From: Eledone cirrhosa
Taxonomy: Eukaryota
Length of the DNA stretch: 64,000 nucleotides
Direction of reading: 5' to 3'
Assembly: GCA_964016885.1 (NCBI GenBank)
Contig: OZ024741.1
Span: 347,882,001-347,946,000, forward strand
Shown: one piece after another, positions 7,015-49,154 of the stretch
Numbering within the stretch: the stretch's first letter is position 1
Layout of the letters: every line of letters begins with the position of its first letter
Translations under genes and position numbers: made by a program
The notes under the pieces: generated by a model
The model's database searches: none
Seen by the model: only the letters and a program-made list of their open reading frames with translations
What the model was told of the DNA's origin: nothing

Positions 7015-7370
7015 TATCAATTCAAAATATTAACAAAATAGATATTCTTCTGATCAATTATATTTTGTTTAAGATAGTAGATGGTTAAGATTCAGTCATG
7101 GTAGTGACTACCATGATTGAATCTTAACCATCTACTATGTCAGGGTATGTCATGTATCATTTTATTTTATCTGATGAGGACGTACTTTTAAACCTAACTC
7201 AGTACCTTTGAAATATGTATAATAAAATATAATTGATCACAAGAATATCTATTTTGTTAATATTTTGAATTAATATTAAAAACTCTGGAAAACCTCGCTG
7301 TTGAGTGCTTCCAATCTATTGTAAAACTTATTATTTGATGTATTCATTGAACCTTGTTTAACTTTTAAAT
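7015..7370 (+). mobile_element. TA-flanked fold-back mini-element (PLE pLTR-like)
   Basis: Outer arms at ~7018-7068 and 7224-7273, plus an inner near-perfect palindrome at ~7075-7138. A hammerhead lies on the right side and (TA)n flanks both ends. Confidence 0.8.
7163..7229 (+). ncRNA. minimal type I hammerhead ribozyme
   Basis: tattttat-CTGATGA-ggacgtac...gtaccttt-GAAA-tatgta-TA-ataaaata. Stem I is 8 bp and stem III is short and quasi-palindromic. Predicted cut after 7221. Confidence 0.75.
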
Positions 7371-7415
7371 ATATATATATATACATACATACATATATAT
7401 ATATACATATATATA

Positions 7416-7458
<43 letters not shown>

Positions 7459-7467
7459 AAGTGTGTC

Positions 7468-7538
7468 CTCATCAGTGGCCTTCCAACCGTCGTAGGCATT
7501 TCGTCGCATTAAAGGCCATATACCTCAGGTTGGTGCGA
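7468..7538 (-). ncRNA. non-circularly permuted hammerhead candidate, copy 1 (core intact)
   Basis: Minus strand reads tcgca-ccaacc-TGA-ggta-TA-tggcctt-taa-tgcga-c-GAAA-tgcc-TACGAC-ggttgg-aaggcca-CTGATGA-g. Confidence 0.75.
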
Positions 7539-8367
7539 GCAACGGCTAAAAAAAGTCGTTGGGACACGTAAATAAGGGGGACGCTAGGGTAAACAAACAA
7601 AATGGTTTAAGCAACAGAAAGTGATGAAGAAGAAACAAGTCACAGATTTCTATGAATATAAATTCGGTGGAATCGTGAACGAGAGAATAAAGACCATAAA
7701 ACCTGGTTGAAATGTGAGCAAGGAAGGAATTTCGCACAGGTCTAACGGGAGGAAGAAGGGGCCTGGTCTGCGAATTCGGTAAACATAAGTTCTGTGAAGT
7801 CGCAGACGAGAGAGAGAGTAACAAAATTCATACCGGCTTGGCCACGTGCCCGCGAGAAAAGGATTATCATATTTACACATATATTTTTTCCTCCGCTGCC
7901 ACCAGTCTGTTTCGTTCTTTGTGTGTTTACCCTTTCTAGCAGTCTCTCTCTCTCTCTGTTAGCCTCTTCCTCACCTTTCACTCACTCACTCTCTGTCACT
8001 ACCTCTCCTCCTCCCCTTTCTTCCCGTTTGACCTGTCCGTAATCCTTTTCTCGAGGGCACGTGGCCAAGCCGGTATGAATTTTTTTCCTCTCTCTCTCGT
8101 CTGCGACTTCACAGAACATATGTTTACCGAATTCGGAGACCAGACCCCTTCTTCCTCCCGTTAGACCTGTGCGAAATTCCTTCCTTTCTCACATTTCAAC
8201 CAGGTTTGATTGTCTTTATTCTCTCGTTCACGATTCCACCGAATTTATATTCATAGAAATCTGGGACTTGTTTCTTCTTCATCACTTTCAGTTGCTTACA
8301 CCATGTTGTTTGTTTACCGTAGCGTCCCCCTTATTTACGTGTCCCAACGACTTTTTTTAGCCGTTGC

Positions 8368-8438
8368 TCGCACCAACCTGAGGTATATGGCCTTTAATGC
8401 GACGCAATGCCTACGACGGTTGGAAGGCCACTGATGAG
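8368..8438 (+). ncRNA. non-circularly permuted hammerhead candidate, copy 2 (GAAA changed to GCAA)
   Basis: Same as copy 1 but with GCAA at 8404-8407, so probably impaired. Confidence 0.65.
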
Positions 8439-8447
8439 GACAAACTT

Positions 8448-8495
<48 letters not shown>

Positions 8496-8717
8496 CTCCC
8501 GTTTGGCTTGTGTGGGTCTCTTCTTGCTCACATCTCACACACATCAACACGGTCTGTACCTCTCTCGCACATGAAATCCACCCAGCTTATGCTGACCGGA
8601 CAATCATGTTGCTTGTTTATTTTCCTATCTTCGGTTTGCTTTTGTCCTTCTATGTTGTTTACTTGTCCCACTCGCCTTACGCGAATTCTGGTGCCAATAA
8701 CTTATTTTAGTTATTGC

Positions 8718-8788
8718 TCGCACCAACCTGAGGTATCTGATTTTTAATGCGATGAAATACCAATGATGGTTGGAAAATCACTGACGAA
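8718..8788 (+). ncRNA. non-circularly permuted hammerhead candidate, copy 3
   Basis: tcgca-ccaacc-TGA-ggta-TC-tgatttt-taa-tgcga-t-GAAA-tacc-AATGAT-ggttgg-aaaatca-CTGACGA-a. Predicted cut after C8737. Confidence 0.75.
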
Positions 8789-9243
8789 GGACTATTTTTA
8801 TCATATGTAACCCATGTGCAAACCACGCAGTATTCTTCTTTCTTCTCATGTGTTTTTATATATATTTACCTCGGCTGCGTTTGTCTGTTTCTCTCTTACT
8901 GCTTCGCCGCTCTCTCTGTTTCTCTCACCTTGTTTCGCCCTCTGTCAGTTACACTTTCTCTCGACTGACCTCTTCCTCACACTTCCAATCACTCACTATC
9001 TGTTTCTGCCCTTCTCCCTTCCTCCCGTTTGGCTTGTGTGGGTCTCTTCTTCCTCACCTCTCACACAACTCAACACGGTCTGTACCCCTCTCGCTCATGA
9101 AATCCATCCAGATTATGCTGACCGGACAATCATGTTGCTTGTTTATTTTCCTATCTTCGGTTTGCTTTTATCCTTCTATGTTGTTTACTTGTCCCCCTCG
9201 CCTTACGCGAATTCTAGTCCCAATAACTGTTTTTATTTATTGC

Positions 9244-9314
9244 TCGCACCAACCTGAGGTATCTGATTTTTAATGCGATGAAATACCAATGATGGTTGGA
9301 AAATCACTGACGAA
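9244..9314 (+). ncRNA. non-circularly permuted hammerhead candidate, copy 4
   Basis: Motif identical to copy 3. Predicted cut after C9263. Confidence 0.75.
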
Positions 9315-9373
9315 AGACTATTTTTATCATATGTAACCCATGTGCAAACCACGCAGTATTCTTCTTTCTTCTC

Positions 9374-9441
<68 letters not shown>

Positions 9442-9627
9442 GGAGGGAAGAGAGCGAGAGAGAGGGAGTGAGAGAGAGAAATAGGGAGAGAGAGTTACAC
9501 TAACTACAAGTGCATACATCAAACCACATGTAAGGCAGAAACTAGTCAAACGTATAATATATATGGAACGAACCGCTAGAGCATGTGTGTTGACCACGCA
9601 TACATATATACATATATACACAGATAT

Positions 9628-23291: not shown

Positions 23292-23419
23292 AAAAGAGCT
23301 CAGCCGTCGGGATCCTGACTCTTTTCCTATTACCTACTCTACTACCATAAGTATCAAGTACCCTGGTCCGTTATGGTCCACCTTATCTTATCACACCCTC
23401 TTTGTCTTTGTTATATATT

Positions 23420-23492
<73 letters not shown>

Positions 23493-23945
23493 CAAAGACA
23501 AAGAGGGTGTGTAAGATAAGGTGGACCATAACGGACCAGGGTACTTAATACTTATGGTAGTAGAGTACCAGGATAAACATTTTCATTTAGTCCAGAATTA
23601 GCTGTCAAAACGACTTGAGCTCAGCCGTCGGGGTCCTACTCGTTCATAATACCCACTCTACTACCCTAAGCATTGAGTACTTTGGTGCGTTATAGTCCAT
23701 CTGGTTCCTTACCACATTTCCTTCGTTATATATATATATATATATAAAACGAAGGAAGTGTGGTAAGGAACCTGGTGGATCATAACGCACCAGAGTACTC
23801 GATACTTTGGGTAGTAGTGTGGGTAATAGGACAAGATTCAGGACCACGACGGCAGAGCTCAAGCCGTTTCGACGGTTATTTCTGAGTCCAGAAATACCCG
23901 TCGAAACGGCTTGAGTTCTGCCATCGGGGTCCTGAACCTTTTCCT
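23288..23945. mobile_element. cluster of four half-hammerhead-family arms separated by (TA)n
   Basis: Segments 23288-23412, 23490-23728 and 23746-23945 share gagctcagccgTCggg..tacccactctactacc..ttatggtcca in alternating orientation. Confidence 0.8.
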
Positions 23946-30577: not shown

Positions 30578-30958
30578 TATATAAAGAAAAAGAGATGAAA
30601 TCGAAAATGCAACTGGAGTCTTATTTTTTTTTTTAAATATATATATTTATTTGGTTCCTTTACCGGTTTCGCAGTTCTTCTTTACCGGTTTCGCAGTTCT
30701 TCTGCTTTTCAAAAGGTGAGTTGAGATGGAGGGTCTGTGGTTTTTCTCACATGATGTGAGAAAAACCACACACCCTCCATCTCAACTCACCTTTTGAAAA
30801 GCAGAAGAACTGCGAAACCGGTAAAGGAACCAAATAAATATATATATTTAAAAAAAAAATAAGACTCCAGTTGCATTTTCGATTTCATCTCTTTTTCTCT
30901 ATACTTTCACTCGTGTAGGACACCTCGGTTATTTTTCATTTTGTAAAAAAAACCTCAC

Positions 30959-31326: not shown

Positions 31327-32480
31327 TTTTTGTCTTCTCTGCGCATGCGTTTGCGTGTGTGTATAGTGTTTGATATGTGTTCGCGTTTGGGTGACTGTGT
31401 TTTGGTTATTGTAGTCTATCTTAGTTTACTAGTGTGTGTTTATGTGTCTGTTTTTATTGTGCTTGTGTATATATTTATTCATTTATTTACATTTCTCCTA
31501 GGTCAGTATTGTTTGTTTGGGTGTTGTTGTTATTCCATTCATTTTTTTCTGTTTAGCTTTGGCCTTCTAAGTTCTATTTCACTGGCCTCTCTGATTTTCT
31601 GGGTCATTTCTATGTTTAGATATTTATTTTAATTTCTATGTTGTCTATGTTACCGGCATGTTGTTGTCTGGCGTGTTCGTATATTACTGAACCGTTTTTT
31701 CGTCCTTTTAGTTTCCCCCAGTGTTGATCTATCCTTTCACCTATGTTACGAGCTGTCCCGCCTATGTATGTTGTTGTCATGTTTCTGCAAGTACACTCTG
31801 TACATCTTATGCTATAGACTACGTTTCTAGTTTTACAGTTTATCCGGGGCTTTACTTTGTATATAATACATTTCCTATTAGTACAGTGGGTTTTCTTAAA
31901 AGGGTATGTTTTGCTGATCAGGGATTTTATGGTGGTTCCTGTCTTTTCTACCACCTTAATCTTTAAGTAGGTCTTTGTCAGGTCCTTTCTACACTGGTTA
32001 GCTAATTTCCCTCCAGGGGTAGCGTCCAGGAACATGACACTCTGGTATCTCTGGTTGTCGCACCATAAGATGGCTTTCCCTATCTTATGTTTAGTCCTAT
32101 CTAAGCTATTCCATGATTTGCTCCTGTATAATGGGCAAATTCCTTTCATGTCCAGTTCTATGAGGGTCTTATACTTCTCCGTGGCTCCTTCGTATACTCT
32201 GATTCTGTCACATGGGTTGTAGCCAGAGAACTTCATGCGGTTGATGATGTGTTATATGTGTCTTTCCATTTCTGTTGGGTCGCACATGCGGGACACGTTC
32301 TTCATCACTCGTACCAAGTCTGCGGTCAGAATTTAAATTTAGCACTGCTGGACATTGCTGAGTTTTTGAGTATCAGGTATTTGGAGGCCATAGGTTTCGC
32401 GTAGTGTGAGTGGAGAATTTGGCACTCTCGTCTATAGTGTTAATCCAGAGTTTCGTGTCTAATACAGGTAGTCTGTGGTT
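31015..32480 (-). mobile_element. 5'-truncated Penelope-like element B (RT C-terminus plus GIY-YIG), decayed
   Basis: ORF 31616..32236 reads SGY...PLYRSKSW...TPGGKLA...CKTRNVVYSIRCTEC...YIGGTARNIGERIDQH...HARQQH. HYAKPMASKYL occurs upstream. A degenerate HHR (acca-CTGACGA-tgctgca..tgcaac-GAAA) lies at 31198-31240 in the 3' region. Confidence 0.85.
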
Positions 32481-33487: not shown

Positions 33488-36231
33488 CACACACATACAC
33501 ATATACAAGCACACACGCATACATACACATACATACATACATACAAATAAGTACACATAAACGCATAGCACAAACACGCACTCGTTCGCACTCATATATG
33601 TGTCTATAATATAATGGTAGTGGGACAAATTTTAAATTTTAAATTTTAAATTTTAAACTGGGCCTGATAGAGGATTAAAATAATTAATATCACTACTAAG
33701 TTATTAATATTATCATCAAGTAATTAATTACTATTTATTATTTACTATTTATCATTCACTATTCGTTACCTATCTTTTATCTTTTATCTATTCATTACCT
33801 AATCACTCACTCATAAATAAATAAATAAAATAATGAGTTAACTAACAAACAAACAGACAAACAGATAAACAAATAAACCTGTAAATAAGTAAATAAATAA
33901 ATAAATAAATAAATAAATAGATAAATAAATAAATAAGTAAATAAACAACTAAATAAATAAATAAATAAATTTAAAAAAATAAAAAAAAAAATAAAAAAAT
34001 TAAATATACAGATAAATAGATAAATAAATCACGAACGTGTGCGTGCAGCAGTTCATAACTGCACGTATGCAAACATGAGCAGGTATATACGTGAATTTGT
34101 GAGTGCGGCCACAGAACTTTACTCAGAGGCATACAACACGATATATAAGACCTGGAAGGGAGGAAAGAATGTAATAATGAGAGATAGAGGGGAGGAAAGA
34201 GGGTAATAATGAGAGATGGAGGGACGGAATTGGGATGGGGGACGGGGGTGGGGTGGTGATATGGGGGGCGGGATCAGTCGGGGGGCCGGGGGGTCAGTAG
34301 TTTTTGTAATTTGCATAGTTCTTGTGCATGCAATTAGGGGAGTGTTCCGAGATCTTGTTGAGGAGAGGGCCTTTGACGAATAGAATCTCATAGCTCTCGG
34401 AGATACAGAGGTCACAGCAATTATGGCCTCCCGTGTAGGATCGCGCTCTCTGGAGTAGTCTCCATTGAGTCTTGAAGGGGATGGAGTTCCTTTTAAGGTG
34501 CCAGATGTGGGCGGCGAGTGTAGTTTGGTTAGATATGTCCTGGCGCCGGAACGAATGTGTGTGGGCGTACCAGCGAGTCTTAAAACTATTAGAAGTCATC
34601 CCGATGTACGAGTTTCTTTTTTCATCGGGGCCTGAGAGTACATCGCATATATAGACGAGATCTGTTTTTAGACAGTTGTTGTTGAGAGGGCAGGTCGTCT
34701 TATCAGGGCAATTGCTGTTGCTATCGGTTGCTGGATGGGCTTCGGAAAAAGTAGACTTATTTAGCTTCTTGATGTTATTGTTGGCTAATTTCCTAGCTAG
34801 ATTAGGTGTGGTAGAGTAAGAGAGTCTAATGGTATTCTTATTAAGGATAGTATAGTACCTATGTTGGGTGGGGAAGTGTTTTTGTAAGAGAGTGAAGAAA
34901 ATTTTAGCTACAGGTGTTGAAACTTCGCGGTTGAAGGGGGGGGGGGGGGTGTACCAGCTAATGTGCCTTCGCCTATTCTTCCTGGGTGGGCGTGGGGCTA
35001 TACTAAGGTAGGTGATCTTATCTCTAAAGCCGCTGCGGGCCAGGGCCTCGTTGTAATAGGGGGCTGCTGCTCTAAAGATATCTTAATTGGCGGCGAGGCT
35101 AGATATCCTAAAGGAGACACTTTTTACTAGGTTGTCTAATATATTTTTGGGGTGGTTAGAATTAACGTCTATATATCTAAGAGATTCATTAGGTTTGTGG
35201 TACGGGTAGTAAACGGAAGTTTCTAAGTCGAGGGTAACGTCTAGGAAATTAGCTTTAGTTAGTTCGAATCTAAGGTAATCCTAAGGCCTAAGTTTTTAAA
35301 GAAGGTGTAAAGGTTTTTCCTGAACCCATCCGTGGTCCTGGGGTTGATTTTGTGGAGGGCAAAGAGGCCGTCATCTCGGTGGAGACCGCCGGAGAGGCCT
35401 GTGAAGAGGGTCTTCAACCTGTGGAGGATGAACAGACCCACAAGGTCACTAATATCAGCTGAGTCGCTAGCACCCATGATAACGTCGAAGGGGGTCTCAG
35501 ATTTTTTGTTGATCCAGTGGGATCTGTCATGGTAAAGAAAAGTCTTACGTGCATGGAGGATCACATCCTGCTCGGCTTAGGTAATTGTGGTTAAGTTCCT
35601 GGCGAAGTTAATCGCGTCAATCAGCAGGCTCTCTGATATGGATGCGTAGTAATCCTCGATGTCTAGCTGCAGGAAGCGGGTGTTGCTTTTGTCGGGCAAG
35701 TCCCGGAACCATGTGATTGCCTCTGATGTCCTATTCAAGAGTGGGAGAGATGAGGCAGCACGTAGTCTAGGTAGAATCCTGTCCAGGATCTTCTTACTGA
35801 CTGATCCTATGTCAGACTTGGTCGGGTTAATCAGCCGGACCGACGGTTTATTGTCGAAGTTGTTCTTGTGGTCTGTTAGGGTGAAGTGTGGGGACTTTAC
35901 CCTCAGAGGTCCTGTCCGGTCTTCCAGTTTAAGGGAAGTGGCGATCTTCTTTCCGGCTATGTTTGTTTCAGTCAAAGTAGTGTCATCAACTTTTTTGTAC
36001 TTTGCTATCATGGCATTATCAGCAAGCTTGTTGTATGTGTCGGGAATAACCGCATAAGTGTTTTTAGTTTTGTCTGAAGGGACGTGGAGGTACGGGGAAC
36101 TTTTCATTTTCAGAAGTTTCTCCTTTAAGTCCGTTTGGAAAGGTATGTTGACTTTCCTGAATTTAATATTTTTTATCATTTGAAGAGGTCTTCTTCAAAT
36201 GGTTCAAGTAGGCTGTTGGTGGGTGGAGCCT

Positions 36232-47856: not shown

Positions 47857-49154
47857 TATTGGTAAACGGAATAGAAAATGCTGACAAATTGTTCACAGTG
47901 AAAAATAGTTTAATTAGGAATAAGTGATAATTAGTAATAGTATTGGTTAGTATTAAGTTTTGGTTTTAAGTTTTACCGCTTGCGCAGTTCTAATGCTTTT
48001 CAAAAATAATTTTGAAAGTAAATCAACCGAAACTAAAATCTCTTCCAAACATCTCCGCACACAACCCTCTCAACAATGAGCCTCCAGAACATCCCTGTGT
48101 TGAAAAAGGACCATAGAATGAACCAAATCCTACGAACACACGATATCATAAAGAGCAAAAGACAATCTAAGTCAATGAAAAACATCTTAACACATGCCAA
48201 AGTACTGCCAACCACAACAACGAAACCCACAGTAAGAAAATGCGATAGACCCAACTGTGGCATCTGCATCAACCTAATAGAGGGTTCGGAATTCTATTTC
48301 AAAGAAGGACAACGTTTTATAGTAAAACACAATTTCACATGCGCATCGGAAAATCTAATATATGTATTAACTTGCTCAGGTTGTCGAGAACAATACATAG
48401 GCCAGACCGAAAACAGCCTCCGCCAACGCATGACTGTCCATAGATCCCAAATTAAAATACGGGAATACAGGAAAATACCACTGAGTGAACACATTGATAC
48501 CTGTGCAACCCAAAATCATCCCAACTACAGAATATTTCCCCTCTACAAATGTAAAGATAAGGCCACCCACACCCAGCGCATCAGCAAGGAATCTTACTTT
48601 ATTAACAAATACGGACCCCGTCTAAACACTTCTCCCTAATACGAACCGACATCATACACACGTCAACATACATACCTACATCAGCATACATATCTAACCA
48701 CATATAAACAGAATGACATACGTAAACACACATCTTGTATGGTGCAACACAAATATACACACATTTGCATACCTTTTGATGTCTATAGATATAAACATGC
48801 CGACACACACACATACATAAACGCACACATGCATTGCACACTGATGGGCACATACATATTTGTGCACAGGTATTCCAATACGGCAAGGCCTAATGAATCT
48901 GGACACACTCACACATACCTTGGTATTATCATTTCACACCTTTATATTAAGGTTTTTTATATATATCATTTCACACCTTTTATTATTAAGGTTTTTGATG
49001 TTCTATTGAGAGAATCGATTTTACTGAAAATATCGAATAATGTACACCATTTTAACAGAAATATATACTAATCCACCCACACACACACATTCTCACACAC
49101 ACACACACACATATATATATACACACACATACACACGCGCATTAACATACAAAG

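Follow-up and report, generated by a model that had tools for sequence, protein, structure and literature searches.

A high-copy, non-coding tandem retroelement of Eledone cirrhosa, carrying a hammerhead fold with the block order S-G-C, probably makes self-cutting RNA that is pasted into (TA)n targets by a Penelope-like reverse transcriptase (RT) and GIY-YIG endonuclease. The copy described below lies in the window, i.e., the 64,000-nt stretch analysed here (contig OZ024741.1, positions 347,882,001 to 347,946,000, forward strand), and coordinates are those of the window unless stated otherwise.

A direct repeat with a spacing of 526 nt (8493-8792 versus 9019-9318, 95% identity) was found in the window. 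Its second copy reaches ~9379 by alignment, which gives an element of ~887 nt, or 1.69 head-to-tail units, flanked by (TA)n. This agrees with the initial annotation, which had described about 1.7 non-coding units inside (TA)n and had predicted cuts at 8737 and 9263, 526 nt apart; hammerhead cores with H17 at both positions were found. The element and its surroundings are laid out as follows.

8452..8493, no strand assigned: (TA)n target run, common to the element and its sister element
8493..9379, plus strand: family-A non-coding retroelement insertion, 1.69 tandem units, 5'-truncated
8738..9263, plus strand: predicted cut-to-cut monomer, 526 nt, 43% GC, 68% pyrimidine, weakly folded
9380..9407, no strand assigned: (TA)n run at the 3' end of the element, running on from its internal TA run

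The 3' end of the insertion corresponds to the usual internal TA run of the family (unit position about 120-131), and the continuity of the 9380-9407 run with this internal run likely reflects microhomology used in priming. The element encodes nothing: three stop-to-stop frames across 8493-9379 matched no Pfam family, and tblastn with proteins of Penelope-like elements (PLEs) gave no match on it. The 526-nt monomer is 44% paired, no better than shuffled sequences whether folded as a linear (z = -1.43) or a circular (z = -1.08) molecule.

In both ribozyme copies, the hammerhead blocks are ordered S-G-C (site, GAAA, CUGACGA), with a stem I of 8 bp and a stem III of 4 bp; hammerhead core numbering is used here for positions such as H17 and 10.1. 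The strands are placed as follows.

8690..8794, plus strand: ribozyme copy 1, predicted cut after 8737, P0 and P1 placed by eye
Copy 1, plus strand, 5' of the cut: P0a 8690-8694, P1 8695-8716, P2a 8718-8722, P3a 8723-8728, IIIa 8732-8735, UH 8736-8737
Copy 1, plus strand, 3' of the cut, first part: Ia 8738-8744, P2b 8748-8752, GAAA 8754-8757, IIIb 8758-8761
Copy 1, plus strand, 3' of the cut, second part: P3b 8768-8773, Ib 8774-8780, CUGACGA 8781-8787, P0b 8789-8794
9216..9320, plus strand: ribozyme copy 2, layout of copy 1 shifted by 526, predicted cut after 9263

In copy 2, the core and stems I, III, P2 and P3 are intact, and P1 and P0 have one change each. An S-G-C descriptor matched three times in the window and not at all in 30 of 30 dinucleotide shuffles. 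The 38 Rfam matches obtained for 7400-9450 (E up to 10) include no hammerhead, nor was any hammerhead family seen among the 150 listed of 299 matches in the whole window, as expected from the permuted block order. A conventional type I reading was rejected because neither family A nor its sister family B has GAAA after the core. The core order is not that of type I, II or III; it is a non-circular permutation, the type-SGC order opened at the core.

The permuted ribozyme proposed by the initial annotation is accompanied by covariation. In a fold alignment of 19 copies and 24 pairs, whose rows were hand-picked for an intact upstream half and are mutually related, so that shuffle counts are not probabilities, 84.5% of 453 cells were paired, compared with 30-47% in slid controls. 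Across four sequence families, 19 of the 24 pairs had changed on both sides, including 6/7 pairs of stem I, 4/5 of stem III and 5/6 of the I-II interaction helix, in which 90%, 89% and 88% of cells, respectively, were paired. Every core nucleotide was kept across these four families, whose stem letters are unrelated; in family C, the register of P2 is off by one base. Stem II is divided, with no more than one pair (10.1-11.1) lying 3' of the core, formed in 13/19 rows, and the remainder (P2), together with a helix extending stem I (P3), pairs with the strand 5' of the cut. The closing helix P0 and the hairpin P1 enter beside position 10.1, as placed by eye. With a stem II of a single pair formed in 13/19 rows, catalysis would not be assured.

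A search with the family-A unit gave 115 matches on many contigs from the 40 scored of 3378 candidates. A common 17-mer had 4297 exact genomic matches, and six mutually exclusive ribozyme-tail patterns summed to 10,631, with 0 matches of the reversed controls in both cases, which bears out the dispersed non-autonomous family that had been proposed. Additionally, a spacing pattern excluding families A and B had 157 matches against 1 in the control, revealing older families with other stem letters. Four of these (C, D, E and F; loci L232-L261 and L375-L381) have the same ribozyme spacing and unrelated stem letters, and family F forms a tandem of ~480 nt. Copies of families A and B differ by just a few percent.

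Family-A arrays were sampled from the first 100 listed of the 1698 exact matches of a 25-mer (control: 0), which gave 82 loci and, after overlaps were merged and with two of the regions yielding no row, 76 distinct arrays; this pattern misses copies whose end lies at another internal TA site, close to position 69. The 3' end fell at unit position 120-136, in the internal TA run, in 70 of the 76 arrays, of which 51 held one complete ribozyme, 9 held two or three and 10 held none. A TA run was present at the 3' end in 65/76 arrays and within 20 nt of the 5' end in 58/76. Thus, family A has a fixed 3' end and variable 5' ends, the varying start points for which a genome survey had been proposed, and its arrays reach up to ~15 units. 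None of the family-A arrays examined continued into a coding region. Such insertion marks have been described for PLEs, Naiads included, in the available text of PMC8557442.

Units of one array tended to have rare alleles in common. In family A, 45/559 rare alleles (15 from one array) were shared within an array, compared with 122/31,099 (0.4%) between arrays, a count from which 13 loci that are pieces of one array (L374) were dropped and in which some overlapping loci may count twice; in family B, the figures were 19/222 and 0.25%. Either one monomer was often copied repeatedly or units were homogenised later, and this sharing fails to separate copying from a circle from copying by jumps. The array L374 itself (G000:C15:29.89-29.90 Mb) has ~15 units with recurring unit lengths and common core mutations; its higher-order repetition points to amplification at the DNA level, a satellite in the making.

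The neighbouring insertion belongs to family B and has two features of its own.

7456..8452, no strand assigned: sister family-B insertion, unit ~620 nt, head-to-head inverted arms
7457-7568 (minus strand) and 8338-8449 (plus strand): family-B ribozymes, the plus-strand copy with GCAA instead of GAAA

Its inverted arms (7413-7866 and 8040-8493) are 96% identical and it abuts the same TA run, in line with the PLE-type inverted structure and common (TA)n target claimed for it previously. In one sample, inverted pairs were seen in 4/15 family-B and 0/16 family-A insertions; one inverted family-A case was found at L330. The minus-strand arm of another inverted family-B insertion (L524) starts exactly at unit position 1, the predicted cut.

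The window contains ordinary as well as rearranged hammerhead elements. Conventional type I (C-G-S) matches were found at 7171 (+), 17520 (+), 22876 (+) with 22654 (-), 41999 (-) and 54775 (-) with 56020 (+), some of them as inverted pairs, and 44237 (+) with 44119 (-) is type I-like by eye. Penelope-like fragments are located at 48037-48639 (+), 31616-32251 (-) and 34294-36194 (-); they include two GIY-YIG frames, the second below the Pfam cut-off, and two frames that are Hydra-type-like by eye and have no Pfam match. In addition, long inverted repeats at 23333-23569, 23656-23820 and 30698-30808, which gave spurious microRNA matches in Rfam, are probably arms of other small elements; the first two surround TA runs.

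In the mechanism we favour, which combines target-primed reverse transcription with template jumping, read-through transcripts of copies with two ribozymes would be cut, and a nicked (TA)n target would prime cDNA on the internal UA run of the unit, ~130 nt 3' of the cut. The enzyme would often run off at the cut 5' end one unit further up; alternatively, it would cross the cut by a jump onto the cut 3' end, rebuilding tandems. Helices P0, P2, P3 and III, predicted to total ~20 bp, would keep both ends of a doubly cut monomer together, so that the 526-nt monomer could act as a nicked circle without ligation. The family likely descends from a Naiad tail, given a ribozyme of the Naiad 3'-end kind.

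Which PLE would supply the proteins is a separate matter. According to the available text of PMC8557442, Naiads insert into (TA)n targets in tandem or inverted form and were reported without canonical hammerheads, eight being flagged with half a core. We parsed by eye the last 330-380 bases of 50 Naiad consensus sequences as given in the supplement of that paper. Six of the 50 tails (two octopus, three Acropora and one ctenophore, the last with a stem I of just 2 bp) showed the S-G-C architecture with other letters, and four nematode consensus tails showed complete hammerheads in C-S-G order with the interaction helix. No complete core was seen by eye in the displayed 330-380 bases of the other 40 tails. 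Bivalve, hemichordate, amphioxus and some cnidarian tails in this set have another conserved motif without a hammerhead core. These tails suggest that the ribozyme family likely originated in Naiads.

Within the E. cirrhosa genome, Naiads were found only as decayed remnants, with 33 matches in one search and 53 in another; of the latter, 48 had stops and the other 5 lay in frames of 102-223 aa. A degenerate RT-motif pattern had 21 matches (54 in the control), at least 4 of which were Naiad-like remnants. No permuted ribozyme was linked to any of 84 overlapping Naiad-remnant loci; a family-D ribozyme near one remnant was considered and proved to be a separate insertion. Moreover, no core could be made out by eye in the tails of 20 Naiad remnants, and a 22-mer of a published octopus Naiad tail had 0 genomic matches. 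A Pfam GIY-YIG search identified long frames, and in all 16 of the 16 fetched (up to 1096 aa) the endonuclease was C-terminal; the C-terminal-endonuclease ORFs examined had no permuted ribozyme attached. Thus, of the proposal that the family is mobilised in trans by a PLE, the link to PLEs stood and was narrowed to a Naiad-type ribozyme, whereas no autonomous element with the same motif, for which a survey had been suggested, was found in this genome among the Naiad and C-terminal-endonuclease ORFs examined.

The same RNA mechanism may therefore be served at present by a C-terminal-endonuclease PLE rather than by a Naiad, a reading whose chances we put slightly below even. The elements in question we take, by eye, to be Neptune-like or Hydra-like. 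Besides the 16 C-terminal frames, this reading draws on the finding of Naiads as remnants only, in agreement with what the available text of PMC8557442 reports on cephalopod Naiads, and on the slight divergence of family A and B copies. However, a conventional type I hammerhead is visible by eye in the tail of one of these elements (L165), and the 53-match search was a stricter first look in which 51 of 23,442 candidates were scored, so that a young Naiad of another clade could escape it.

Whether the RNA is cut was addressed by three indirect lines of DNA evidence. First, 21 family-A arrays are long enough to extend into the 46 nt immediately 3' of the second cut, and 11 of them have their 5' end inside these 46 nt, a stop rate of 0.016 per nt compared with ~0.002 elsewhere (binomial p 4e-6, for a stretch chosen after the data were seen). 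At the first cut, 7/70 arrays stop, which equals the baseline. The 5' ends near the cut scatter over positions 4-45 and do not fall on position 1. In family B, 1/22 later-lap ends fell in the corresponding stretch (p 0.62), with few arrays reaching the second cut.

Insertion 5' ends were also ~4-fold enriched just 3' of the predicted cut genome-wide on the minus strand: a TA run lay within 25 nt upstream of 248/2265 copies of a 14-mer immediately 3' of the cut, compared with 47/1780 copies of a 15-mer immediately 5' of it; these two probes cover partly different subfamilies and do not separate laps. Of 76 copies departing from the family at the cut, 70 were examined and 26 proved to be breaks, whereas a control site located 7 nt upstream gave 9 breaks in 69 examined copies of 91 (p 0.0016). 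Two of the 9 control breaks really belong to the cut, and the 26 include a one-base slip. In a strict class of indels and inversions of at least 4 nt without 3-nt microhomology, from which TA/ATC-repeat ends, slippage-like insertions and repeats of one event were dropped by eye after the data were seen, there were 12 independent events at the cut and 0 at the control. Among these are deletions that run from the cut as far as positions 6-58, insertions of extra bases, one inversion and the junction of subfamily G. In subfamily G, the upstream ribozyme half of one subfamily is joined at the predicted cut to position ~209 of another, and this chimera has spread to at least seven places (L385, L439, L440, L443, L453, L455 and L456). 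Most junctions are precise, which circles or uncut read-through would explain equally well; in the stretches used for the 5'-end counts, 2 deletions start at the cut. Judging from these DNA scars, self-cutting at the predicted site is likely to occur in vivo.

The form of the template is a further question. Double cleavage might yield a 526-nt monomer whose ends, as in known retrozymes, would be ligated (probably by RtcB), and the resulting covalent circle would be the main template for rolling reverse transcription, which we regard as rather unlikely. In favour of a circle, the start points of arrays vary, 68 of the 76 arrays traverse the cut precisely at least once, units of one array share rare alleles, and known animal retrozymes form circles (PMC7229834, in its available text). 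Likewise, a two-unit array (L411/L442; G000:C3:278.71 Mb), in which both tandem units lack positions 1-46 after the cut and no complete ribozyme is present, repeats a shortened unit. However, a closed circle gives no cause for stops at the second cut and not at the first, and the indels, non-templated bases and two-subfamily junction at the cut (subfamily G) imply free RNA ends. Moreover, the fold of the monomer is no stronger than that of shuffled sequences, in contrast to the high self-pairing that the sources available describe for published retrozyme circles. With stops confined to the second cut, copying by template jumps on linear, cut RNA fits better than a closed circle; such stops would follow equally from a linear RNA cut one unit upstream of an uncut ribozyme or from a doubly cut monomer whose ends are kept together by the ribozyme helices and bridged once by a jump. 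The second-cut pile-up and the junction scars together suggest that at least some copies derive from linear, cut templates.

It is quite improbable that the fold does not cut at all and instead acts as a protein-binding or packaging signal or as an RT barrier, with tandems arising by read-through of old tandems and unequal crossing-over. The minimal stem II, the repetition of unit variants at a higher order in the longest array (L374) and the spread of 5' ends over positions 4-45 rather than on position 1 would all suit such a fold. Nevertheless, the core is fully kept across four families with unrelated stem letters, the first lap crosses the same structure at the baseline rate, and left breakpoints fall on the predicted cut. 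A one-off local duplication without dispersed copies, which the initial annotation had named as the case against its own reading, can be dismissed in view of the 1698 exact matches of the family-A 25-mer and the 0 of its control.

Returning to the self-cutting RNA that we favour, we tentatively suggest a broader model: Naiads and their short parasites in comb jellies, corals, nematodes and octopuses may use non-circularly permuted hammerheads missed by earlier descriptors, and the helices of the core-opened form may clamp the doubly cut 526-nt RNA into a nicked, non-covalent circle across which the RT jumps. If true, such a nicked-circle jump would explain Penelope-type partial tandems and pseudo-LTRs without ligation. 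A fold present in more than 10,000 animal-genome copies would join the loose ends of permuted hammerheads and of Naiads and add a hammerhead topology. Since thousands of family insertions record the ends of their template RNAs, the choice between a circle and a cut linear RNA with jumps would be directly testable for Penelope-type tandems.

In the literature searched, which leaves most subscription papers outside, no report of permuted hammerheads in Naiads or retrozymes was found, nor does the available part of PMC13725137 contain one; an octopus repeat annotation (PMC13282606) has 0 mentions of ribozyme. Family A resembles Naiad PLEs (Craig et al. 2021, PMC8557442, as far as its available text shows) in its (TA)n target, 5' truncation, partial tandems and inverted 5' copies. 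Unlike Naiads, which encode an N-terminal endonuclease and RT, it encodes nothing, and no sequence link from family A to a Naiad ORF was found in the E. cirrhosa genome.

With animal non-LTR retrozymes (Cervera and de la Pena 2020, PMC7229834), as described in the available text, family A shares non-coding tandem units with one hammerhead per unit, a GC content below 50%, dispersed monomers to multimers, no LTR features seen and a proposed PLE helper. The derivation of retrozymes from PLE tails is already in print in the accessible part of Li, Clavereau and Pollet 2026 (10.64898/2026.07.22.740005). Those retrozymes have type I (circularly permuted) hammerheads and units of 150-450 bp (PMC7229834; 10.64898/2026.07.22.740005), and in the portions available their highly self-paired circles were seen by northern blot, whereas family A has a 526-nt, weakly folded unit with an S-G-C ribozyme. 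Family A works like an animal retrozyme but departs from it in two defining features, the type I ribozyme and the short self-paired unit.

The closest ribozyme described is the type-SGC hammerhead HRIMA-1 with its variants (Eckert et al. 2023, PMC10085705, available text), which has the same S-G-C order and full core, a 3-nt linker leading from stem I into stem II, and an additional helix between the flanks of both stems. In HRIMA-1, stem II directly follows CUGAnGA on the 3' side, whereas in family A block C is interrupted, with at most one pair after the core. Also unlike HRIMA-1, family A uses a strand located 5' of the cut for its distal stem II and its interaction helix, and has a closing helix with a hairpin next to position 10.1. 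In the accessible text of PMC10085705, metatranscriptomes and metagenomes are the sources of non-circularly permuted hammerheads, and only a single weak candidate is given from a known genome. That text reports type-SGC from no genome of a known organism, whereas an animal retroelement carries the present fold in over 10,000 copies. The C-S-G type was previously known from two metagenomic sequences.
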